This document shows positions 3,636-57,522 of a DNA stretch of 64,000 nucleotides, in pieces (within the stretch, counting starts at the first letter, position 1; each line of letters opens with the position of its first letter). The notes beneath the pieces were generated by a model. The model saw only the letters and a program-made list of their open reading frames with translations. It was not told where the DNA came from and made no database searches. The position numbers and the translations under genes were made by a program. The stretch lies in contig OZ246418.1 in assembly GCA_965231155.1 (NCBI GenBank), positions 174,850 to 238,849 on the forward strand, given 5' to 3'. This DNA comes from an uncultured Candidatus Saccharibacteria bacterium (GTDB taxonomy: Bacteria; Patescibacteriota; Minisyncoccia; UBA6257; 2-01-FULL-56-20).

Positions 3636-4532
3636 TTACTTTATTTCTATTCCTTTAAGGGCGGCGATACGTTCCTCGATCGGTGGATGGGTCATAAATA
3701 TCTTATGAAACCAGGAGGTCTTCTCCTCCCCTGCGAACGGATCATCAATCCAGAGGTGCGAGGTGGTGTTGTTGGCGATCGACATTGGCGTGACGTCGGC
3801 GGAGATTTTTCTAAGGGCGCTTGCCAAACCTTCAGGATATCGGGTGAGCAGTGCGCCAGAGGTGTCAGCCAGAAACTCTCGGCGACGGGAAACCGCTAAA
3901 CGCATCAGCGTGGCAGAGATTGGCGCGAGAATGGCGATCGCAATGGCCGCAATATAAAACACTGGTGGGACCTGGCGATCTCGATCACGATGCCCCCAGA
4001 ACATCGAACGCAAAAACATATCGCTAATCAAAGAAATGAAACCGACGAGGATGACGGCTGCGGTGCCAATCAACATATCGCGATTACCAATGTGCGACAT
4101 CTCATGCGCCAGGACGCCTTCGAGCTCGGCGCGATCGAGTTTATTGAGTAGTCCTTCGGTCACCGCGATCACGGCGTGTTCTGGATTGCGCCCAGTGGCA
4201 AAGGCATTGAGGGCTGACTCGTGGATAATGTAGAGCTTCGGCATTGGCAAGCCGGCAGTAATCGAGAGGTTCTCGACGATACGATACAGCTCGGGATTCG
4301 TCTTCATATCAACTGGCTCAGCGTGCGCCATCGAGAGCACGATCTTATCTGAGTACCAGTAACTGACAAAGCTAGTGAGAAAAGAAAATCCTACGGCAAA
4401 ATAGAGGATGCCCGGATCACCATAGACCTGCGAAAACACCCAGCCCACGCCGATGATAAAGATGAGAAAAACAGAGAACAAAAGGAAAGTCTTTCTGATA
4501 TTAGACTCTTTTTGCGTATAGAGAGAAACCAT
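3636..4532 (-). CDS. htpX: zinc metalloprotease HtpX (M48 family)
   Basis: HEMSHIGNRD zinc-binding HExxH motif flanked by TM helices. Adjacent to lemA, as is common. Confidence 0.9.
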   Translation of the reverse strand: MVSLYTQKESNIRKTFLLFSVFLIFIIGVGWVFSQVYGDPGILYFAVGFSFLTSFVSYWYSDKIVLSMAHAEPVDMKTNPELYRIVENLSITAGLPMPKLYIIHESALNAFATGRNPEHAVIAVTEGLLNKLDRAELEGVLAHEMSHIGNRDMLIGTAAVILVGFISLISDMFLRSMFWGHRDRDRQVPPVFYIAAIAIAILAPISATLMRLAVSRRREFLADTSGALLTRYPEGLASALRKISADVTPMSIANNTTSHLWIDDPFAGEEKTSWFHKIFMTHPPIEERIAALKGIEIK

Positions 4533-5083
4533 TAGAACTTAACCTGGACTGGAGCTTTTTCTTTTTCGTCCTCAACCTCGAAGAACTTTTCAGAGAAGAA
4601 TCCGAACGAACTGGCGATCATATTCGAAGGGAAGGTCTCGATCATAGTGTTCAGATCACGGACTGTGCCGTTATAGAACCGACGAGCGGCCTGGATCTTA
4701 TTCTCAGTGTCTGACAACTCGCGCTGTAACTCTAAGAAGTTTGTGTTGGCCTTAAGATCAGGATAGTTTTCAGCTACTGCAAACAACGTCTTCAAAGTGC
4801 CGGTTAACATATTCTCCGACTCAGCACGATCTAAGGCACTGCCCGAAGCACCACTCACCGCCGCCCGGGCTTTGGTGACATTTTCTAAAACACCCTGCTC
4901 GTGTGAAAGATACCCCTTCACTGTTTCCACTAAGTTTGGGATCAGATCAAAACGACGCTTCAGCTGTACATCAATATCCGAGATGGCCTCCTGTGCTCGA
5001 AAACGCAAAGTGACCAAACGGTTATAGGCATACACCAACCATAAGGCGAGCAAAACTGGGATTCCAATAATAATGAATGTCAT
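4532..5083 (-). CDS. lemA: LemA family protein
   Basis: N-terminal TM helix followed by YNRLVTLRFRAQEAISDIDVQLKRRFDLIPNLVETVKGY, a LemA signature. Confidence 0.85.
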   Translation of the reverse strand: MTFIIIGIPVLLALWLVYAYNRLVTLRFRAQEAISDIDVQLKRRFDLIPNLVETVKGYLSHEQGVLENVTKARAAVSGASGSALDRAESENMLTGTLKTLFAVAENYPDLKANTNFLELQRELSDTENKIQAARRFYNGTVRDLNTMIETFPSNMIASSFGFFSEKFFEVEDEKEKAPVQVKF

Positions 5084-5191
5084 AGTTCCTGGATTATATC
5101 ACATCATACTCAAAATCAAACAGGCCACTCCTTGACAACATTCACTTTCTTCATATATAGTAAGATCAGCACAACGAAAGGAGGTCTCATC

Positions 5192-5611
5192 ATGCAAATG
5201 AAGAGATCCATTGTAGCTCTATTGGGATTGGTTGTTGCAGTAATCGCCGCCAGCCCCAAGCGAACTAACGCGCAAGATTCTCTGTGTAACATCGAAAGTC
5301 CGACTATCCTAGTCGGTCAGGCCTCGTGGTATGGTCCCCGGTTTCACGGGAAAAAGACAGCCACAGGAAAGGTGTTCGACCAGAACGACCCTTCAATGGC
5401 CGCTTGCCTCGATGGGTTCAAGAATGCCTGTCTTCGAGTGACTAACCTGGAAAATCGCCGCTCACTCACGGTTGCTTGTAGAGACACGGGTAGCTTCTGT
5501 GAAAAATACGGAAGGATCATCGATCTCTCCGAAGCAGGAGCAATCCGCCTCGGGTATAAGACCCGAGGAGAAGCAGACGTCAGAGTCGAACCTGTGGCAT
5601 GTGAATCGTAA
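5192..5611 (+). CDS. RlpA-like double-psi beta-barrel (DPBB) lipoprotein
   Basis: Signal peptide then ASWYGPRFHGKKTATGKVFDQNDPSMAA...VTNLENRRSLTVACRDTGSF, an RlpA/DPBB pattern. Start moved to the ATG at 5192, which is preceded by an AAGGAGG RBS. Confidence 0.7.
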   Translation: MQMKRSIVALLGLVVAVIAASPKRTNAQDSLCNIESPTILVGQASWYGPRFHGKKTATGKVFDQNDPSMAACLDGFKNACLRVTNLENRRSLTVACRDTGSFCEKYGRIIDLSEAGAIRLGYKTRGEADVRVEPVACES

Positions 5612-5631
5612 CGCGTTAGTTCCCCCCCCAT

Positions 5632-5668
5632 GAAAAAGGCCCGTGCGCATCCAGCGTATCGGGCCTTT
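5632..5668 (-). terminator. intrinsic terminator downstream of groEL
   Basis: AGGCCCG...CGGGCCT inverted repeat followed on the minus strand by TTTTTC. Confidence 0.5.
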
Positions 5669-5750
5669 CCTACATTCAGTAAGCCTTTATGAGTATTTTG
5701 ATCCGAAAACCTATAAAGGAAGTCCTAGATTTTTGGATAAAAGATACGAA

Positions 5751-7400
5751 CTAGTAGCCCATGCCACCCATCCCCGGCATACCACCTCCCATACCAGCAT
5801 TCTTATCTTCCTTCTCTGGAATGTTTGTAAGCGCGGCGCCAATAGTCAGATAGGTTGAAGCCACTGAGACCGAGGAAACCAGAGCGGTCTTTGTCACCTT
5901 CAGCGGATCGATAATCCCCGCTTCTTTTAGATCGCCAATCTTATTGGTAATGCCATTAAAGCCAGTCCAACGATCACCCTTGGCTCGCTTCTTCAGTTCT
6001 CCCAACACTGCTTCGGCTGACTCACCGCTGTTGTGTAAGATGGCACGAATTGGTGCTTCTAAGGTTTTCATCAAGATCAGATGCGCAGCTTTCGCCACCT
6101 CATCTTTCTTTTCTACATCAGCCATATCCAAAGAAACATTATAGAGCGCGATTCCACCGCCAGGGACGATACCTTCTTCCATGGCAGCGCGTGTGGCAGC
6201 AACCGCATCTTCCACTCGTTGCTTCAGCTCCTTCTGAGCAGACTCGGTTGCGGCACCAACTTTAATAACGGCCACACCACCAGAAAGTTTGCCCAATCGC
6301 TCCTGCAACTTCTCCTTGTCGAAATCAGAATCGGTCTTCTGAATCTGAGCTTTAATCTGCGAAACTCGACTATCGATTTCTTTTTTATCGCCCTTACCAT
6401 CAACGATGGTAGTGGAGTCCTTTGTAGACACAACACGATGCGCGTGGCCGAGGTCTTCGAGCGTAACATTCTCTAACTTCTTGCCGAGATCTTCAGATAC
6501 GAACGAAGCGCCGGTGACGATCGCGATATCCTGCAACATCTCCTTCCGGCGATCACCAAAACCAGGAGCCTTCACCGCTAACACGTTGAAGATGCCACGG
6601 AGCTTGTTCAGAACAAGCGTCGCCAAAGCCTCACCCTCAACCTCTTCAGCAATAATTACCAACTCCTTCTTGCCACTCTGTACAATCTTTTCTAAGAGAG
6701 CCAGAATCTCCTGAATCGAAGAAATCTTCTTGTCAGTTACTAAGATATATGGATCTTCGAGAGCCGCTTCCATGCGCTCCTGATTAGAAATCATATACTG
6801 CGAAACATATCCGCGATCAAACTGCATACCCTCCACCAACTCATACGAGTTCGCCAAGGTATTCGAATCTTCAATAGTAACTACACCATCCTTACCAATC
6901 TTTCCCATTACTTCGGCGATTAATCCGCCAATCTCTGCGTCCTTCGCAGAAAGAGTGGCAACTTCTTTTACCTTTTTGTTGTCGTTAATAAGTTCTTTCT
7001 GGGTCTCCAAGGCCTTGATAATAGAAGTGCTTTCTTTCTTCAGCTCTTCGGCCAAGTGAATAACATTAAAACCTTTTTCGCGAATGGCTTTCTCACCCTC
7101 ATCGATCATGGCCTGAGCCAGCACGACAGAGGTCGTTGTGCCATCACCGACATTGTCGTTGGTTTTGTCAGCGGCCTGTTTAATAAACTCGGCGCCAAGA
7201 TTTTCGTACTTGTCTTCAAGTTCAACTTCCTTAGCGACGGTTACACCATCAAGTGTCACCTGCGGTGCGCCATAGCCTTTTTCAATCACTACCGCACGAC
7301 CACGAGGCCCAAGAGTCATCTTCACTGCTTCGGCCAACTTGTCGATACCCTTCTTCATCGCGGCTCGCGCCTCTTCGTTAAACAAAATTTGTTTTGCCAT
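5751..7400 (-). CDS. groL: chaperonin GroEL (60 kDa)
   Basis: [27 protein letters not shown]...; Gly/Met-rich C-terminal tail; 549 aa. Confidence 0.98.
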
Positions 7401-7438
7401 AGTGTTTCAGATTTATACGTTTTTAAAAAGACCTTTTA

Positions 7439-7732
7439 TTACTCCAGGATCGCGAGGATATCGTCCTCATCGCCAACCATATACTTCTTGCCGTCGAGCT
7501 CCACCTCGTCTGGACCATATTTCTTGAATAAGACGGTGTCGCCCACCTTCACCGACATTGGGATTCGGGCATCTCCATCCTCGTTCATCTTGCCTGGACC
7601 AATAGCGATAACCTTCCCTCTTACTGGGCGTTCTTTCTCGGCTGAATCTGGCAAAACAATCCCCGACTGCGTAACCTTTTCCGCCTCCAAAGGCTCAATA
7701 AAAAGGTGATTTGATAATGGCTTTACGTTCAT
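7439..7732 (-). CDS. groS: co-chaperonin GroES (10 kDa)
   Basis: 97 aa with the GroES mobile-loop and roof motifs; immediately upstream of groEL. Confidence 0.97.
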   Translation of the reverse strand: MNVKPLSNHLFIEPLEAEKVTQSGIVLPDSAEKERPVRGKVIAIGPGKMNEDGDARIPMSVKVGDTVLFKKYGPDEVELDGKKYMVGDEDDILAILE

Positions 7733-50640: not shown

Positions 50641-50723
<83 letters not shown>

Positions 50724-50810: not shown

Positions 50811-52694
50811 ATGTCAGAAACAACACAACCACACAATACTCAACCGCCAGCACGGCCGGTTCGGTCAGTGCGACGGAGTGGACCTGGTACATCATCGACT
50901 CCTTCCCATTCCGGGAGAGACTCTCGACACGGTGGCCAGTCTCACCCACCTCGCAGGCAGACAGATCATGGACGACGAAACTTTTCCGCACGTCCTGCAA
51001 TAGCCACTACAAAACCAAAAGAAATTGAGGACGAAAACGCGGTAAAATTCACACCTCTCGGTGGTCTCGAAGAAATTGGACGCAACTGCTCCTTCTTCGA
51101 GTATAAAAACCAGATTGTCGTCGTCGACGTCGGTATTCAGTTCCCCGAGGAAAATACTCCTGGAGTTGACTACATCATTCCAAACGTTGCCTATCTCGAA
51201 CAAAGGAAAGCAGATGTCCAGGCGATTATCCTTACTCATGGCCACTACGATCACATGGCTGCGATTCACTATGTCATCGAAAAACTTGGCAATCCAATTA
51301 TCTACACCTCGAAATTCACACGTGCCTTAGTTGAAAAACGCCATGAGGAGTTCACTAATGCACCAAAACTTCGCTTCATCAATGTCGAAGTTGGACAACG
51401 GGTAAAACTCTCTGAAGACTTCACCGCTGAATTCTTTGAAGTCGAGCACACCATCCCTGAATCTCTTGGTTTTATCCTCGAAACTCCCGTTGGCAATATG
51501 GCCAGCTTCGGAGACTTCCGTTTAGATTTTGACCGCAACGGTAAAGTTCGCAACATGGAGGTCTTTGATATGCTCAAAAAACGAGGTATTCATACTGCCT
51601 TTATGGATAGCACGAATGCTGATATTGCTGGCAAGGCTGCTTCCGAAGAAACTGTCGAGGAAAACCTCGAGATGCTCATCAAAGGTGCGAAGGGTCGCGT
51701 CATCATTGCTGCCTTCGCCTCTCTTGTTGATCGTATTTTAGAGATCATCAAAATTGCTGAAAAACTTGGGCGCAAAGTGACTATGAATGGTCGCTCCATG
51801 AAAACTAACATGGAGATCGCGAAGCAACTCGGCTACCTCAAGGAAAGAAAGGATCTCCTCTTCCCGCTTGAGGACATAAATAAATACAAAGACGAAAAGG
51901 TTCTCCTCCTTACCACTGGCACCCAGGGAGAAGCGAACGCTGGACTGATGCGCATCGTAAATGGTGAACACCGTGTAGTAGCCTTGAAACCAACTGACAC
52001 TGTTATCTTTTCCTCCTCTGTTGTTCCAGGAAATGAGCGAAGCGTGCAGTTCCTCACCGACAATGTGGCTCGTCAGGTTGATCAGGTCTACAACTCAAAA
52101 CTCCTCGACATTCACGTCAGTGGCCACGTCCACACTGAGGATGCCAAGATGGTTATCGAACGAATGCAACCAAAGTTCATCGTGCCAATCCACGGCTACT
52201 ACTTCAAACGAAAGAGCTACCAAAAGATTGCTGAGATGGCTGGCCTTAAAAAAGAACAGGTCACCCTTATGGACAACGGACAAGTTCTCTCGATGACTAA
52301 AGATGCAGTTAAAGTCCTCGATCGTACCATTCCCTCTTTCTACATTATGGTTGATGGTCTAGGAGTCGGTGACGTCGAAGAAGTGGTCTTGCGTGATCGC
52401 CGCGCCCTCTCGCAAGAAGGCATGGTAGTGGTAGTGATTACTATCGATCGACGTAACGGAAAACTTCTGAAAAGTCCCGATATTATCTCTCGCGGATTCA
52501 TCTACCTCAAAGAGAACCAACCTCTTCTCGAAGAAATGCGCAAGAAAGTCCGCAATTTAATCGCGCGCATCCCAGCGAATCAACCGATTGATAGCGAGTA
52601 TGTGAAAGGTATTGTGCGTGATCAAATGGGTCAGTTCATCTATCAGAAGACTCATCGTCGCCCGATGATCCTACCGGTCGTGATCGAGATCTAG
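50811..52694 (+). CDS. rnj: ribonuclease J (metallo-beta-lactamase/beta-CASP) with about 75-aa basic low-complexity N-terminal extension
   Basis: ILTHGHYDHMAAI motif and beta-CASP motifs; 627 aa. Confidence 0.9.
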   Translation: MSETTQPHNTQPPARPVRSVRRSGPGTSSTPSHSGRDSRHGGQSHPPRRQTDHGRRNFSARPAIATTKPKEIEDENAVKFTPLGGLEEIGRNCSFFEYKNQIVVVDVGIQFPEENTPGVDYIIPNVAYLEQRKADVQAIILTHGHYDHMAAIHYVIEKLGNPIIYTSKFTRALVEKRHEEFTNAPKLRFINVEVGQRVKLSEDFTAEFFEVEHTIPESLGFILETPVGNMASFGDFRLDFDRNGKVRNMEVFDMLKKRGIHTAFMDSTNADIAGKAASEETVEENLEMLIKGAKGRVIIAAFASLVDRILEIIKIAEKLGRKVTMNGRSMKTNMEIAKQLGYLKERKDLLFPLEDINKYKDEKVLLLTTGTQGEANAGLMRIVNGEHRVVALKPTDTVIFSSSVVPGNERSVQFLTDNVARQVDQVYNSKLLDIHVSGHVHTEDAKMVIERMQPKFIVPIHGYYFKRKSYQKIAEMAGLKKEQVTLMDNGQVLSMTKDAVKVLDRTIPSFYIMVDGLGVGDVEEVVLRDRRALSQEGMVVVVITIDRRNGKLLKSPDIISRGFIYLKENQPLLEEMRKKVRNLIARIPANQPIDSEYVKGIVRDQMGQFIYQKTHRRPMILPVVIEI

Positions 52695-52728: not shown

Positions 52729-53160
52729 TTATTTCATCTGAACACGAAAGAAGTGACCATATCGTTTCTGGTCGATATAGTGAATTTCAGTTGGTACAAC
52801 TCTATATAATCGGTGATCCTCTCTAAAGTCATCTGCCCAGGGAAATCGTTTTCTATAAATGACGTAGTGTTTTTTAAAATCCTTATCGGGGACGAGCTTA
52901 GCCCTGCCCACAATCTGCATTCCTTTGACCTGTCCCGCCGTGCCATGATCCTGATTAATCACAATAGAAACTAAACTATTTTTAATAATGTGCTTAGCGT
53001 GCTTGGTATCCGGTCTGGAGTAGAAAAATATATTAAGACTACTATCATACGCAAAAAAGACCGTGGCACCCCAAGGTTTACCGTTAGAAACTGTGCCTAA
53101 GGTCATGAGTCTGTTGCCCTTGAGATACTCGAGCACAATTTTTTTATCAGTGGCTTTCAT
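52729..53160 (-). CDS. pyridoxamine 5'-phosphate oxidase-like FMN-binding split-barrel protein
   Basis: 143 aa with a PNPOx-like pattern. Confidence 0.65.
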   Translation of the reverse strand: MKATDKKIVLEYLKGNRLMTLGTVSNGKPWGATVFFAYDSSLNIFFYSRPDTKHAKHIIKNSLVSIVINQDHGTAGQVKGMQIVGRAKLVPDKDFKKHYVIYRKRFPWADDFREDHRLYRVVPTEIHYIDQKRYGHFFRVQMK

Positions 53161-53481: not shown

Positions 53482-56400
53482 CTATGCCCGACGCAGAGAA
53501 ATATGAGTTATCCCCTGGATCTCCCCAGGCACCTCAATGATGGAACTTTTCATTTTCTCGTAAAAAATATTTTTAGCCTTCACTTCTCGAGCAACTAACT
53601 TTTCTTCCTGCCTAATGAGACTCTCTATCTCTTCAGAACCCTCAACGGCGAGCACAATAGAATCTTGTGGTTTCAAATTCGCTTTCTGTCGAAGATCCTG
53701 AATCTGACGAACTAGTTCGCGTATGATTCCTTCATTCTTTAGCTCTTCAGTTATTGTCGTATCAAGCCAAATTTCTTCTTTGAGTTTTCTATCATACACA
53801 ATTTCTTTTATATTCACCTCGTCCTTCAAGATTTCTAATAACTCTTTCCTTATTTTTATTGCACTGGTTTTAATCTTCAGAGTGGACAGGGGCTGACGCA
53901 CTTTCAATCCTAACTCGGCACGCTTAGCCAGCACCAACGTTGCCAGTCTTCGCACCTCGGCCATCTCCTTAATCAGTTTTTTATCAATTAACTTTTTGTT
54001 GAGTGTTGGCCAGTTCAAAAAATGAACAGAGTCTTTTTTCTTCTTTGGCTCGAGTTGGTGATACAAGAACTCAGCGAAAAATGGAGTGAACGGAGCAGTG
54101 AGGGAGGTGAGGGAGTAGAGAATCTGCCCGAGAGTTTCCGAACCTTCTGCGTAGTCAGTTTTTGAAAGTGGCTTCTGTAACCGACGGCGGGAGCGACGAA
54201 TATACCAACGAGAAAAATCATCTAGGAAAACTTCGAGTGTCAGCGCCGCCTCACGAATATCATAAGCATTTAGCTTCTTGGTTGTTATCTCAATCACCTC
54301 CTCAAGACGAGCGATAATCCACTGATCGAGCAATGATTTCTTCTTTTTAATTGGCTTGGCTGGATTTCTCTTTTTTGGACCATAGGTATCGTAGAAAACA
54401 AACGAGTTCCAAAGCATTAAGTGATACCGTCGAGCCGCCTTTACCACCTCCTGTTCATCAAAATTCTTCGGTTCGCCCGCAGCGGTCGCTGTGTAAAAAT
54501 ACCAACGGACTGCATCAACACCATGTGCGTCGATAACCGAACGAGGCTCCACAATATTGCCTTTCGACTTCGACATCTTCTGGCCAAACTTGTCATTGAT
54601 GAGTCCAAGGGAGATCACGTTTCTATATGGAGCGGGGTACCCAAGAGCCGTAGCGGTAGCAAGCAGTGTATAGAACCATCCTCGCGTCTGATCCATACCT
54701 TCGGCGATATAATCAGCGGGATACGCCTTCCGGCCATCGATCTCTTTCTTGTTCTCATATGGATAGTGAAGCTGAGCAAACGGCATCGCTCCCGAATCAA
54801 ACCAGACATCTGCTACTTCCGTGATGCGTTTCATCGAGCCGGCACACTTCTCACATCGCAATCGAACTTCGTCCACAAACGGACGATGAAGATCGAGACG
54901 ACCAGTATTATCAATAGAGGCCACGGAAGTTTTGATAGGATAGATTTTTCCTTGTTGCGGGAAAAGAAGATTCGGAAGCTTGCTGTCAGGAACACCTTCC
55001 AAAAACCTCTTAGTCAGCCACAAAGTATCTCCATGAGAAACAATCACGATTCTCTCTCCCGGATACTTCGCGACCAACTCCTTCCAAAGCTTGGCCACCC
55101 GCGCCGTCACTTGATTACGACTCTCTCCTTCAGGAAGTGACTTGTCGAGGCTGGTTACTATGTTTCCCAGATAAGAATGGAAGTCTTTCTCTGGATGACC
55201 AGCGAGGGTTCCTGGATTAATGTCCAACAACTCATTCCTTGTCTCAACAGACACACCAGTCACATCACTAATAATAGCTGCCGTCTCTCTGGCACGAGCT
55301 AGTGGTGAAGAAATAATTCGATCAATTCTCTTCTTTGCTAGGAGTTCGGCTGTTTTCCGTACCTCTTTTTTTCCTGCCTCGGTAAGATGAGAAGTGTTGT
55401 TTGGTAAGTCTATGGCTGGACCAGTCAGTTTCTGGACATTGTGTTGCGCCTGGCCATGACGCACAAAAATCAATTCTGGCATCAACGAGGCTTCGTTCAG
55501 TTCTTTAATACTACCGATCACTTTTGTTTCTTTGCACTCCTCACACTGCCAAACCGGCAATGGCACACCCCAGAAACGATCTCGGGAAAGATTCCAGTCC
55601 TTAACCTCACGAAGCCATTCGCCAAACCGACCTTCTTTAATATGCGCCGGTTGCCAGTTTATTTTTGCATTCTGAGCCAGTAGTTCTTTTTTCAACTTAC
55701 TCATCCCAATAAACCAGGAGGTTCGTGCGTAGTAGATGACGGCCGTACCACAACGCCAGCAGTGAGGATACTCGTGGATATACTCTGCAATTTTCAGAAG
55801 ATTACCGTTCCGCTCGAGAATTTCAAAAATCTTTTTCTCTGTTTCTTTGCCTGAGCTTTCGTGATCCTTCGCCATCATCCCGCCCAACTCATGAACTTCG
55901 TTAATGAACCGACCATCCTCCTGCACGGTATGAGACTGGGGAAGTTTCTCTTTGAGACCAAGCTGGTAGTCATCCTCTCCGTACATCGGCGCAATATGTA
56001 CTACGCCGGTACCATCGGTGGTTGTCACGAAGTTCGCGCCATAAATTTTATGGGAGTTCTCGTTTTGCAAACTTGGTATCTCAAAAAGTGGTTCATATGA
56101 AAGCCCAACTAAGCTATGACCAGAAATATTTTTCTGGAAAATAGTTGTTTCTTGTCCGCCAAAAACAGTTTCCAATAAATCTTTGGCTACAATATGTGTT
56201 TCTTGCTTGTCTCGAATTGCAACATACTGAATCTTTTCTCCCACCGCCAACGCCACATTGCCTGGCAGGGTCCACGGCGTAGTCGTCCAGGCCAAAATAT
56301 ACGTTTTCTCGTCAGTCGTAGAATCGCCAATCTTCTGTCCTGATTTCAGCTGAAACTTCACATACGCCGACTTATCTTTCACATCCTTGTATCCCTGCGC

Positions 56401-56982
56401 TAACTCGTGCGAGGACAAGGCAGTCCCACAGCGAGTACACCACGGCACCACTTTGTGTCCCTGAAACAAAAGTTTTTTATCAGATAATCGCTTCAGAATC
56501 CACCACAAACTTTCGATATATTCGTTTTTATACGTAATGTACGCATTCTCCAGATCAAGCCAGTAGCCAATGCGGTTGGTGAGATTCTCCCACTCATCCT
56601 TAAAAAGCCAAACGGCCTTCTTCGCCTCTTCATTAAACTTTGCGATACCAAACTGCTCGATATCTTTTTTTGATTTCAGGCCAAGTGCTTTTTCAGCGGC
56701 AATCTCCACCGGCAAGCCATGTGTGTCCCACCCACCACGTCGAGGTACGTAGTAGCCGTTCATGGAACGGAACCGGAGAATAATATCCTTATAGGTTCGG
56801 GCGAGGACGTGATGAATGCCTGGTCGGCCGTTAGCATAGGGCGGTCCCTCGTAAAACACAAAGGGCTTCTTCCCCTTCCTCTTCGCCAAACTCTTCCTGA
56901 AAATATCCTCTTTCTTCCAGAATTTCAGGACCTCCTCCTCCACCTCGGCCAGCTTGAATGGTTTGTCTTTTTCGAGAAACAT
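53482..56982 (-). CDS. ileS: isoleucine--tRNA ligase (type 2) with an internal histidine-phosphatase (PGM-like) domain insertion
   Basis: HIGH-type PPYANGRPGIHH, editing-domain TTTPWTLPGN, KMSKSKGN, and two Zn knuckles. Between WQCEECKE and RLRCEKCAG lies a region of about 200 aa carrying FVRHGQAQHN and VIVSHGDTLW (RHG...SHG). Start set to MFLEK. Confidence 0.9.
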   Translation of the reverse strand: MFLEKDKPFKLAEVEEEVLKFWKKEDIFRKSLAKRKGKKPFVFYEGPPYANGRPGIHHVLARTYKDIILRFRSMNGYYVPRRGGWDTHGLPVEIAAEKALGLKSKKDIEQFGIAKFNEEAKKAVWLFKDEWENLTNRIGYWLDLENAYITYKNEYIESLWWILKRLSDKKLLFQGHKVVPWCTRCGTALSSHELAQGYKDVKDKSAYVKFQLKSGQKIGDSTTDEKTYILAWTTTPWTLPGNVALAVGEKIQYVAIRDKQETHIVAKDLLETVFGGQETTIFQKNISGHSLVGLSYEPLFEIPSLQNENSHKIYGANFVTTTDGTGVVHIAPMYGEDDYQLGLKEKLPQSHTVQEDGRFINEVHELGGMMAKDHESSGKETEKKIFEILERNGNLLKIAEYIHEYPHCWRCGTAVIYYARTSWFIGMSKLKKELLAQNAKINWQPAHIKEGRFGEWLREVKDWNLSRDRFWGVPLPVWQCEECKETKVIGSIKELNEASLMPELIFVRHGQAQHNVQKLTGPAIDLPNNTSHLTEAGKKEVRKTAELLAKKRIDRIISSPLARARETAAIISDVTGVSVETRNELLDINPGTLAGHPEKDFHSYLGNIVTSLDKSLPEGESRNQVTARVAKLWKELVAKYPGERIVIVSHGDTLWLTKRFLEGVPDSKLPNLLFPQQGKIYPIKTSVASIDNTGRLDLHRPFVDEVRLRCEKCAGSMKRITEVADVWFDSGAMPFAQLHYPYENKKEIDGRKAYPADYIAEGMDQTRGWFYTLLATATALGYPAPYRNVISLGLINDKFGQKMSKSKGNIVEPRSVIDAHGVDAVRWYFYTATAAGEPKNFDEQEVVKAARRYHLMLWNSFVFYDTYGPKKRNPAKPIKKKKSLLDQWIIARLEEVIEITTKKLNAYDIREAALTLEVFLDDFSRWYIRRSRRRLQKPLSKTDYAEGSETLGQILYSLTSLTAPFTPFFAEFLYHQLEPKKKKDSVHFLNWPTLNKKLIDKKLIKEMAEVRRLATLVLAKRAELGLKVRQPLSTLKIKTSAIKIRKELLEILKDEVNIKEIVYDRKLKEEIWLDTTITEELKNEGIIRELVRQIQDLRQKANLKPQDSIVLAVEGSEEIESLIRQEEKLVAREVKAKNIFYEKMKSSIIEVPGEIQGITHISLRRA

Positions 56983-57084
56983 AGTTCTTTGATGATAAAC
57001 CGAAAAGCCCTGCCTTTTCAATGAAATGCCTAGACAAGCTCCAGTTCTAGACTTTCCGTTTTATAAATGATTTAGTTGTTATAT

Positions 57085-57522
57085 ATGAAGGCGTATTCAG
57101 AAAATCGAAAAGCCAGATTCGACTATGCCATCCTTGAGACCTTCGAGGCCGGCATTGTACTCTCTGGTCAGGAGGTAAAAAGTGTTCGTCAGGGGCAGAT
57201 GGACCTCTCGGCCAGCCACGCCATCTTCCAGAAAAACGAACTCTGGCTTTTCAACGCCACGATTCCTCCTTATCAGCCAACGAATCTGCCAACCGGCTAC
57301 ACTCCCAATCAAAAACGAAAACTTCTTCTTCACAAAGAAGAGCTTCGTAAACTTACTACAGCGCTTAAGGAAAAAGGACGCATGCTCATTCCGCTCAAGG
57401 TCTACGACCACAAAGGGTTAATTAAACTCGAAGTTGGCCTAGCGAAGAAAAAGAGTAAGGGAGACGAACGAGAAGCTCTCAAGAAACGCGCCGTCATGCG
57501 CGAGATGCGCACCGAGAAGTAG
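57085..57522 (+). CDS. smpB: SsrA-binding protein
   Basis: MKAYSENRKARFDYAILETFEAGIVLSGQEVKS... and a basic C-terminal tail. Confidence 0.9.
   Translation: MKAYSENRKARFDYAILETFEAGIVLSGQEVKSVRQGQMDLSASHAIFQKNELWLFNATIPPYQPTNLPTGYTPNQKRKLLLHKEELRKLTTALKEKGRMLIPLKVYDHKGLIKLEVGLAKKKSKGDEREALKKRAVMREMRTEK

Follow-up and report, generated by a model that had tools for sequence, protein, structure and literature searches.

A histidine phosphatase domain nested within the isoleucyl-tRNA synthetase of Patescibacteria

The window analysed here, a stretch of 64,000 nucleotides from contig OZ246418.1, encodes an ordinary-looking, complete type-2 isoleucyl-tRNA synthetase (IleRS) within which one whole histidine phosphatase domain is nested. 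This design is real and widespread in Patescibacteria, and we found no description of it: literature searches on IleRS with histidine phosphatase returned no paper, those on aminoacyl-tRNA synthetases with CPR insertion, or on tRNA synthetase fusion in Patescibacteria or Parcubacteria, returned nothing relevant by title or abstract, and a 2026 preprint on IleRS evolution mentions neither phosphatase nor CPR. Few enzymes are as conserved as aminoacyl-tRNA synthetases and, to our knowledge, those of bacteria rarely hold extra catalytic domains within the catalytic core. In a large share of the Patescibacteria, one such synthetase, itself essential, has an intact phosphatase in its CP3 subdomain.

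A type-2 IleRS with a nested phosphatase domain

The ileS reading frame is unbroken over positions 53482-57021 of the minus strand (1179 aa from a TTG), and the gene callers chose the ATG at 56982, a call repeated on independent contigs; this confirms the 1166-aa open reading frame from MFLEK that a sequence-only reading of this DNA had proposed. The protein scores 891.7 bits, in two stretches, against the TIGR00392 ileS model (cutoff 621.4), and its Pfam matches are tRNA-synt_1, Anticodon_1 (PF08264), DUF5915 (PF19302) and His_Phos_1, the last of which interrupts the tRNA-synt_1 match. Its best PDB relatives are 8c8w (E=7e-234) and 1ile (E=1.4e-231), with the IleRS1 structure 1ffy at only 2e-96. 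The features discussed below are as follows.

53482..56982, minus strand: complete ileS, type-2 IleRS of 1166 aa plus stop, with nested phosphatase (open reading frame list, TIGR00392, Pfam)
55492..56982, minus strand: N-terminal part of IleRS, residues 1-497, comprising the first Rossmann half, CP1, CP2 and the first half of CP3 (aligns to 8c8w 12-476 and 1ile 4-481)
56809..56820, minus strand: class-I signature in the non-canonical form GIHH, residues 55-58 (motif check)
55534..55545, minus strand: first half of the CP3 zinc knuckle, CEEC, with C480 and C483 (motif check)
54901..55491, minus strand: inserted histidine phosphatase domain with linkers, residues 498-694, about 197 aa (gap in the IleRS2 structure alignment; PF00300)
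55453..55461, minus strand: RHG motif, R508, nucleophile H509 and G510 (R and H invariant in 57 of 57 homologous inserts)
55294..55296, minus strand: second phosphate-binding arginine, R563, within SSPLARARETA (invariant in 58 of 58)
55222..55224, minus strand: general-acid position, occupied by Asp587 in the window copy (56 of 58 family members have Glu, two have Asp)
55030..55038, minus strand: SHG motif, residues 649-651, with the second catalytic histidine H650 (H invariant in 58 of 58)
54844..54855, minus strand: second half of the CP3 zinc knuckle, CEKC, with C710 and C713 (motif check)
54565..54579, minus strand: KMSKS, residues 802-806 (motif check)
53485..54900, minus strand: C-terminal part of IleRS, residues 695-1166, comprising the remainder of CP3, the second Rossmann half, the anticodon-binding domain and DUF5915 (aligns to 8c8w 485-848 and 938-999; Pfam)

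Beyond these, the synthetase carries the CP1 editing motifs TTPWT (residue 234) and GTGVVH (residue 324), the CP3 motif LDLHRPFVDEV, and WFDSG at residue 727. From such intact motifs, both aminoacylation and editing are predicted to be kept in the insert-bearing enzyme. A G/AXHH variant of the class-I signature is known in IleRS2 (PMC10485003), and we saw no association between the insert and the GXHH variant among the IleRS compared, as each of the two signature types is found in insert-bearing and in insert-less enzymes.

The insertion point was located by alignment to a solved IleRS, as the sequence-only reading had suggested: query residues 13-497 match 8c8w chain residues 12-476 and query residues 695-1062 match chain residues 485-848, such that about 197 aa (residues 498-694) stand where solved IleRS2 has a loop of about 8 aa at the tip of the CP3 subdomain. 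The phosphatase domain had been placed inside a zinc knuckle, between CEEC and CEKC, and it does lie between these two halves of the CP3 knuckle (residues 480-483 and 710-713). The spacer, first estimated at about 225 aa where 30-60 aa would be usual, is indeed enlarged, the region spanning residues 478-720 measuring 243 aa in the window IleRS versus 50-67 aa in insert-less type-2 IleRS. C480 and C483 correspond to positions 461 and 464 of Tth IleRS (offset from the 1ile alignment). Tt IleRS has a zinc motif in CP3, a subdomain whose structure varies between IleRS types (PMC7191050), and the knuckle cysteines are retained in only about half of the insert-bearing relatives.

By sequence and fold, the insert is a branch-1 histidine phosphatase closer to the short PhoE, PspA and CobC enzymes than to dPGM. 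His_Phos_1 (PF00300) matches residues 504-673 (nt 54964-55473) with 120.3 bits (E=1.1e-34; cutoff 21.7), and the insert covers positions 1-170 of the 194 in that profile. The AF2 model of the domain (pLDDT 87.5, pTM 0.85) has 6s2q, 4ij5 and 4pz9 (Rv2419c, PspA) as its best Foldseek matches, with probability 1.00 and TM 0.69-0.73, while the family profile searched against PDB returned at its top PspA 4ij5 (2.8e-30), PhoE 1ebb/1h2e and CobC, all in whole-domain alignments. The claim of a complete branch-1 phosphatase inside IleRS with both catalytic histidine motifs is thereby upheld, RHG (508-510) and SHG (649-651) having been verified at their coordinates; its description as 'cofactor-dependent PGM-like' needs a small correction, the likeness being greater to the short phosphatases. 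The insert falls below the equivalog cutoffs for PspA (NF045917, 50.4 versus 350) and CobC (TIGR03162, 71.3 versus 162.9), and as it reaches the threshold of no curated equivalog model, no substrate assignment is transferable to it.

The window insert also retains Asn515, Glu620 and Arg628, and it is an unusual member of its family. After the general acid it reads LLDINPGTLAG where the family consensus is LrEinxGxfeG, it differs from the family at nine of 34 conserved positions, and its insert/core identity ratio is the lowest, which makes it the most divergent insert when measured against its own core. Given these deviations and Asp587, phosphatase activity may be reduced in the window lineage.

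Two origins for so long a gene were considered and rejected. A chimeric assembly does not fit an identical 1166-aa protein on four contigs examined, among them an 808-kb contig and assemblies made separately from two SRA runs, nor the same junctions in 57 divergent species; we also found no GC or skew break at the insert junctions. An intein does not fit either, as no Hint or LAGLIDADG/homing-endonuclease domain was matched by Pfam in the IleRS, and the boundaries (NEA/SLMPE and DNTG/RLDLH) lack an N-terminal Cys/Ser and a C-terminal His-Asn followed by Cys/Ser/Thr. The view of the segment as a genuine domain insertion free of intein hallmarks therefore holds, the architecture recurring in at least 57 other species. 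More broadly, the unusual length of the gene is the only point in favour of any selfish element or artefact, other mobile insertions included; against the recovery of one protein from different runs, its even composition and an insert divergence that follows that of the host gene, we regard such an origin as vanishingly improbable.

Spread and inheritance in Patescibacteria

The survey of related IleRS that had likewise been suggested found the same insert at the identical site in 57 of the 80 GTDB loci kept, that is, in at least 57 species-level Patescibacteria genomes, with record titles naming Paceibacteria, Nomura-, Yanofsky-, Taylor-, Wolfe-, Magasanik-, Falkow-, Peregrinibacteria and similar groups. 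Our architecture data derive from an exhaustive representative search and a genome scan; a word-indexed protein search yielded only fragments of at most 437 aa and was of little use for architecture. The inserts are on average about 30-33% identical to one another, and at such identity their catalytic residues are near-invariant (R508 and H509 in 57 of 57; R563, R628 and H650 in 58 of 58; E620 in 57 of 58), which argues for selection on catalysis. Insert and core distances are correlated (Mantel r=0.43, reached by none of 2000 permutations), and the insertion at the CP3 site is old and vertically inherited within the Patescibacteria (CPR). A neighbour-joining tree of IleRS cores intermingles the 'inserted' and 'adjacent gene' states and is too crude to separate one ancestral insertion with later fissions from several insertions.

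The clade to which the phosphatase belongs is repeatedly tied to class-Ia synthetases. Matches to it form 542 clusters (50% identity) at E<=1e-10, and 107 of the best 150 are embedded in a synthetase. Within IleRS there are at least five insertion sites (core-HMM positions ~419-430, ~490, ~517, ~540-553 and ~677-684) and up to two phosphatase copies, ValRS carries one, two or four copies (four in a ValRS fragment), and an ArgRS-His_Phos fusion places the phosphatase at the ArgRS C-terminus. Among these best 150 of 542 clusters, class-Ia synthetases are the only fusion partners identified; for a 998-aa protein in the same set (P0179) no partner could be identified.

Free-standing members show a similar association. 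The closest of them adjoin argS and/or an insert-less ileS in seven of seven cases examined: in six the insert-less ileS lies within 1.6 kb, and in the seventh the order is ArgRS-HP-DUF805, followed by the end of the contig. One free-standing homologue overlaps ileS by 4 nt. These adjacent-gene examples represent only about 3-4 independent synteny contexts. Lower-scoring homologues are sited elsewhere in three of three cases, in a CobU-CobS operon or in archaeal-looking contexts. Two insert-bearing loci (L003 and L004) have ArgRS directly upstream of ileS, while no separate His_Phos gene was found in the flanks of insert-bearing ileS in the 57 loci, nor a second one in the window when the family HMM was run against all six-frame open reading frames.

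Possible roles of the nested phosphatase

Fusion and conserved neighbourhood are a classic sign of functional partnership, and on balance we lean towards a bifunctional window IleRS, in which the phosphatase is a functional partner of aminoacylation. At the level of the family, residue conservation makes it quite probable that the inserted domain is a working phosphomonoesterase; for the window copy, with its change of Glu587 to Asp and its position as the most divergent member, this is somewhat less likely. In such an enzyme the phosphoryl group would pass to His509, the transfer would be stabilised by Arg508, Arg563 and His650 with the residue at position 587 as the acid, and the phospho-enzyme would then be hydrolysed.

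Comparative genomics suggests that the phosphatase may be a partner of class-Ia aminoacylation and not a random passenger. Its putative substrate, as a best guess, may be a phosphorylated species common to Ile, Val and Arg charging; candidates are a nucleotide, a tRNA end bearing a phosphate, or the synthetase in its own phosphorylated form. The closest characterised relatives take small metabolites as substrates (phosphoserine, glucosyl-3-phosphoglycerate, alpha-ribazole phosphate and 3-PGA) and not RNA or proteins, and we know of no aminoacylation step that requires a phosphomonoesterase. Still, repeated fusion to, and encoding beside, class-Ia synthetases makes a nucleotide or tRNA-linked substrate more credible. 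As the inserts occupy scattered surface loops, it is tethering to, or co-dosage with, the synthetase that seems to be selected, with no fixed geometry. If the partnership is true, these reduced-genome epibionts would have an unrecognised step, for instance in product or nucleotide handling, in tRNA-end or enzyme dephosphorylation, or in regulation.

Two general observations belong here. Adjacency and fusion are obtainable through co-expression alone, which counts against partnership, and the scattering of insertion sites over surface loops counts against precise channeling. Both touch on a rival account that we consider rather unlikely, in which the phosphatase is an active housekeeping small-molecule enzyme (acting on phosphoserine or a sugar phosphate, or of a general PhoE-like kind) that is mechanistically unconnected to aminoacylation. 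As a neighbour of argS and ileS in a translation-gene cluster, it would have been fused repeatedly into surface loops that tolerate insertion, in synthetases that are large and constitutively expressed, with selection acting only on co-expression or gene economy in genomes under reduction. The nearest solved relatives (PspA, PhoE, CobC and Rv2419c) are indeed metabolite phosphatases, the insertions sit in scattered variable loops with no single preferred place, CP3 is structurally variable across IleRS types (PMC7191050), half of the relatives can dispense with the zinc cysteines, and plain adjacency can explain both the ArgRS-HP fusion and the ArgRS-HP-ileS order. However, neutral read-through would hardly produce at least five internal sites, in two paralogous synthetases and with up to four copies, and the account also sits poorly with class-Ia synthetases being the only identified fusion partners in the best 150 of 542 clusters and with an adjacency to ileS preserved in at least three synteny contexts. 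Were gene economy alone responsible, a metabolic enzyme would be concealed in a 'translation' gene and missed by pathway reconstructions of CPR. Under either reading, CP3 and four other loops are insertion-tolerant sites for the engineering of class-Ia synthetases.

Two further accounts concern the identity and competence of the domain itself. PGM is absent from several shallow Parcubacteria clades (Jaffe et al. 2020, PMC7304191), and this reported absence would be explained if the insert were the cofactor-dependent phosphoglycerate mutase of the cell. For some members NF038349, the archaeal short-dPGM model, ranks with the better NCBIfam matches (98-110 bits), and S. pombe PGM (1fzt), a monomer of 211 aa, aligns over its full length. 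Yet the dPGM models score far under their cutoffs (TIGR01258 pgm_1, 38.5 versus 81.7; NF038349 dPGM_arch, 68.5 versus 225; NF002901, 52 versus 261), and most dPGM chains align over the N-terminal half only (profile positions 15-123) whereas PhoE, PspA and CobC align throughout. The substrate-binding signature that follows the general acid in dPGM is of the ERHYG type; the corresponding motif of the insert lacks it and resembles that of PhoE, PspA and CobC. With neither sequence signatures nor curated model scores fitting, we rejected dPGM identity, and the idea of a hidden glycolytic enzyme is highly improbable. Only slightly less so is a pseudo-enzyme or structural module whose fold binds phosphate, RNA or protein, or stabilises CP3, perhaps as a substitute for the zinc knuckle, without turnover at least in the window lineage. 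The window's Asp587, its nine deviations at 34 conserved positions and its low insert/core identity ratio would suit such a module, as would the loss of zinc cysteines in about half of the insert-bearing relatives, as if their structural role had been taken over. But the window retains the nucleophilic His, both Arg, the second His, Asn515, Glu620 and Arg628, residues essentially invariant in 58 sequences of about 30% identity, and Asp is a chemically competent acid.

A more specific and quite unlikely reading is that CPR class-Ia synthetases have in the phosphatase a built-in module for repair or immunity, which would remove inhibitory phosphoryl groups from the charging machinery while tethered to IleRS, ValRS or ArgRS. 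Its target could be a 3'-phosphate or pyrophosphate on the tRNA CCA end, of the kind added by toxic small alarmone synthetases, or a phospho-serine on the KMSKS loop, of the kind that Hip-type kinases introduce in GltX and TrpS; the histidine phosphatase superfamily includes protein phosphatases and phospho-histidine phosphatases. If so, translation would be maintained in epibionts under host or phage attack.

Comparison with known systems

In its synthetase portion the window protein resembles the IleRS2 of Priestia megaterium (8c8u/8c8w) and the IleRS of Thermus thermophilus (1ile), with full-length homology (E about 1e-231 to 1e-234), class-I motifs, a CP1 editing domain and a DUF5915-type C-terminus in common. 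It shares the G/AXHH signature variant with IleRS2, and its CP3 carries a Cys4 zinc knuckle as in Tt IleRS. It differs from the solved IleRS2 enzymes in having about 197 extra residues at the CP3 tip, in place of their loop of about 8 residues.

The insert, for its part, has the fold of the short branch-1 phosphatases PhoE (G. stearothermophilus), PspA (the H. thermophilus phosphoserine phosphatase), CobC (an alpha-ribazole phosphatase) and Rv2419c, a glucosyl-3-phosphoglycerate phosphatase (TM about 0.7, 24-27% identity), shares their catalytic residues and their LrEi..G..eG and GES...R motifs, and is of comparable size (about 190-210 aa). These, however, are free proteins whereas the insert is nested in a synthetase, and unlike them the window insert has Asp at the general-acid position.

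Two other systems offer parallels for the architecture. In the bifunctional RNase H/acid phosphatase of the Rv2228c type, this kind of phosphatase is likewise fused to an RNA-acting enzyme; RNase H-His_Phos proteins are present among our profile matches, and of the phosphatase-type NCBIfam models NF005567/PRK07238 gives the window insert its highest score (75 bits, far under the cutoff of 326). That fusion, however, is end-to-end and with another partner, whereas the window phosphatase is nested in IleRS. The N-acetyltransferase domain-containing IleRS of NF040702, and the domains appended to eukaryotic synthetases, follow the same principle of an extra domain built into an aminoacyl-tRNA synthetase. 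The window protein is no member of that IleRS family (308.7 bits against a cutoff of 1999, with no GNAT Pfam match), and where NF040702 adds an acetyltransferase, the window IleRS adds a phosphatase; one relative (P0112) has both GNAT and His_Phos domains inside its IleRS.

A phosphatase domain in the zinc knuckle of a complete synthetase

The isoleucyl-tRNA synthetase (IleRS) gene of the window, which lies in a neighbourhood of translation and RNA turnover, and its neighbours are arranged as follows.

Features of the ileS region
53482-57021, minus: single unbroken ORF in the ORF list of the window
56982, minus: ATG of ileS within this ORF, as called by gene callers (MFLEK, 1166 aa)
56809-56820, minus: GIHH (residues 55-58), a non-canonical class-I signature at the HIGH position
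54901-55491, minus: inserted segment (residues 498-694)
50641-50723, plus: tRNA gene
50811-52694, plus: RNase J gene
52729-53160, minus: PNPOx-like protein gene
57076-57522, plus: SmpB gene

The protein is identified as IleRS by TIGR00392 (891.7 bits against a cutoff of 621.4), in a match split into two stretches, between which lies a branch-1 histidine phosphatase domain (Pfam His_Phos_1, PF00300; residues 504-673, E=1.1e-34, 120 bits against a cutoff of 21.7). The sequence-only reading had proposed just such a phosphatase within IleRS, and the observation holds far beyond chance, with its quoted motifs all in place (CEEC 480-483, RHG 508-510, SHG 649-651, CEKC 710-713). In phmmer comparisons against PDB sequences, residues 12-476 of Priestia megaterium type-2 IleRS (IleRS2; 8c8w) pair with window residues 13-497, and residues 485-848 with 695-1062, so that about 197 residues (498-694) stand in place of a loop of about eight. 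Window C480 and C483 align with positions 461 and 464 of Thermus thermophilus IleRS (1ile), which we take to be zinc ligands. A zinc-binding motif of that enzyme lies within the CP3 subdomain, whose topology varies between IleRS types (PMC7191050). Together these alignments and the CP3 zinc motif place the phosphatase at the CP3 tip, between the two CxxC halves of the knuckle, as had been suggested. Outside the insert the synthetase looks intact: KMSKS stands at 802-806, TTPWT and GTGVVH represent the editing motifs, and WFDSG, an anticodon-binding domain and DUF5915 are all present. A G/AXHH variant of IleRS2 has been tied to mupirocin hyper-resistance (Brkic et al. 2023, PMC10485003); among 72 aligned IleRS2, GXHH and HXGH each occur both with and without the phosphatase, and the GIHH-type signature and the insert are therefore independent.

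A chimeric assembly, a possibility raised with the original observation, is rejected: the exact 1166-aa protein occurs on four contigs examined, including separate assemblies of two SRA runs and an 808-kb contig, and neither GC content nor skew breaks at the insert junctions. An intein is likewise rejected, in keeping with the earlier view of a genuine insertion, as Pfam finds no Hint or endonuclease domain in the protein and the junctions (…NEA|SLMPE… and …DNTG|RLDLH…) are unlike intein boundaries.

Distribution, conservation and family

A survey of homologous IleRS, the check proposed on first reading, shows the same insert across the Patescibacteria. We scanned one genome per GTDB species with patterns taken from the insert flanks and kept 80 loci, 57 of which, a minimum for the species that carry it, align across the whole insert and its flanks at 26-37% identity; their records name them as Patescibacteria/CPR MAGs from Paceibacteria, Nomura-, Yanofsky-, Taylor-, Wolfe-, Magasanik-, Falkow- and Peregrinibacteria and Spechtbacterales. 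Over the stretch that corresponds to residues 478-720, these loci have 206-266 aa, against 50-67 aa in 23 insert-less type-2 IleRS. The window IleRS core (the synthetase outside the insert) is at most 58% identical to that of any species representative, and the window organism therefore belongs to a deep, unsampled lineage of the CPR radiation.

Any two of the 58 insert-bearing sequences share on average 33% identity over the insert and 49% over the core, and despite this the catalytic set is essentially invariant: R508 and H509 (each 57/57), N515 (51/57), S559, R563, R628 and H650 (each 58/58), E620 (57/58), and position 587 (Glu in 56, Asp in 2). Strong purifying selection acts on the catalytic residues. 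The four zinc cysteines are retained in only about half of these sequences. Insert and core divergence are correlated (Mantel r=0.43, reached by 0 of 2000 permutations), the pattern expected under vertical co-inheritance. At general-acid position 587 the window copy carries Asp, which it shares with just one other sequence; 9 of 34 family-conserved positions are altered in its insert (D582R, R584E and E587D among them) versus a median of 4, and its insert/core identity ratio of 0.54 is the lowest of 41 full-length members, a hint that constraint has been relaxed or has shifted in the lineage of the window.

A confident AF2 model of the insert (pLDDT 87.5, pTM 0.85) best matches the glucosyl-3-phosphoglycerate phosphatase Rv2419c and the phosphoserine phosphatase PspA (TM ~0.7). 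The family profile matches PspA, PhoE and CobC full length and most cofactor-dependent phosphoglycerate mutases (dPGMs) over its N-terminal half only; none of the curated equivalog models for dPGM, PspA, CobC, GpmB and SixA reaches cutoff. The description that fits the insert best is a short, putative phosphomonoesterase of the PhoE/PspA/CobC-like kind.

Neighbouring genes and other fusions

The seven closest free-standing homologues examined, which score 147-179 bits with the insert profile, all adjoin argS and/or ileS; six lie no more than 1.6 kb from an insert-less type-2 ileS, and the seventh (P0189) reads ArgRS–phosphatase–DUF805 up to the contig end. Five of the seven keep the order ArgRS–His_Phos–DUF805/small ORFs–IleRS–RecO, either in full or truncated where the contig stops. 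Free-standing genes of ~190-220 aa beside argS and/or insert-less ileS were found at loci L083, L084, L085, L086, L088, L090, L092 and L098: at L090 the phosphatase gene overlaps the same-strand ileS by 4 nt, and one free homologue is convergent with ileS and has RNase J close by, as in the window. Three lower-scoring homologues have other surroundings: a CobU-CobS operon or archaeal-looking neighbourhoods. Two insert-bearing loci (L003, L004) have ArgRS directly upstream of ileS, a gene order that matches the free-standing arrangement except that the phosphatase now lies within ileS; no separate phosphatase gene occurs in the flanks of any of the 57 insert-bearing loci. The adjacent and inserted states interleave in a rough NJ tree. 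RNase J or SmpB is also close to ileS at L083 and L084; this supports a common origin for these regions and that of the window.

Searched exhaustively with HMMER, a set of 1.84 billion cluster representatives yielded 542 proteins matching the insert at E<=1e-10. Synthetase and phosphatase segments were mapped on the best 150 of these: in 107 the phosphatase lies within a class-Ia synthetase, 31 are free proteins with a single domain and 13 are free with two. In IleRS, CP3 is the dominant insertion site among the best 150, with four further sites.

Further insertion sites in IleRS (core-HMM positions)
~419-430: CP-core/CP2
~516-518: second, tandem copy directly after the knuckle
~540-553: loop after WFDSG
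~677-684: linker to the anticodon-binding domain

Some IleRS in this set carry two copies and one (P0112) carries both GNAT and His_Phos inserts. Curated models identify three ValRS, bearing one, two and four copies, and one ArgRS with a C-terminal phosphatase (P0057, P0153, P0030 and P0078). The thirteen free two-domain proteins show how readily this clade undergoes duplication, also away from synthetases; these (P0044, P0047, P0079, P0092, P0094 and eight others) hold two tandem domains in ~360-450 aa. A further protein of 998 aa, P0179, matches Pfam only through a single His_Phos domain. In many database entries and two loci, ileS is split into two ORFs at recurrent positions: P0031, P0036, P0096 and P0114 start at a Met equivalent to window M427, P0032, P0068 and P0154 start at the insert, and the split loci are L038 (2470-4017 / 3989-5947) and L092 (4678-5571 / 5614-7677). 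Truly split genes, truncation at contig ends, frameshifts, or use of the standard code on TGA-recoded lineages could each account for them.

Possible roles of the phosphatase

Insertion of the domain into CP3 of a complete IleRS2 is both genuine and ancient, and the phosphatase clade is tied to class-Ia synthetases through both fusion and neighbourhood. We infer that the window protein is bifunctional and that its phosphatase is a functional partner of aminoacylation. Since the partners are IleRS, ValRS and ArgRS, any shared substrate would be one common to their reactions, perhaps a nucleotide, the tRNA end or the synthetase itself, and the scatter of insertion sites suggests that tethering or co-dosage outweighs fixed geometry.

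The leading alternative is a housekeeping phosphatase of metabolites that merely rides on synthetase genes. In an attractive version of it the insert would be a hidden dPGM, as PGM is reported absent from some Parcubacteria (PMC7304191); the insert sequence, however, lacks dPGM signatures. A pseudo-enzyme is unlikely for a family with so conserved a catalytic set and somewhat more possible for the divergent window copy. Compared with these rivals, a partner of aminoacylation is our preferred reading of an insertion that is recurrent, clade-wide and catalytically conserved.

A literature screen, mostly by title and abstract, found no description of a phosphatase-in-IleRS architecture. Both parent families, IleRS and histidine phosphatase, are textbook, an NCBIfam model exists for IleRS with an inserted GNAT domain, and the present architecture is likewise a domain-accreted synthetase.
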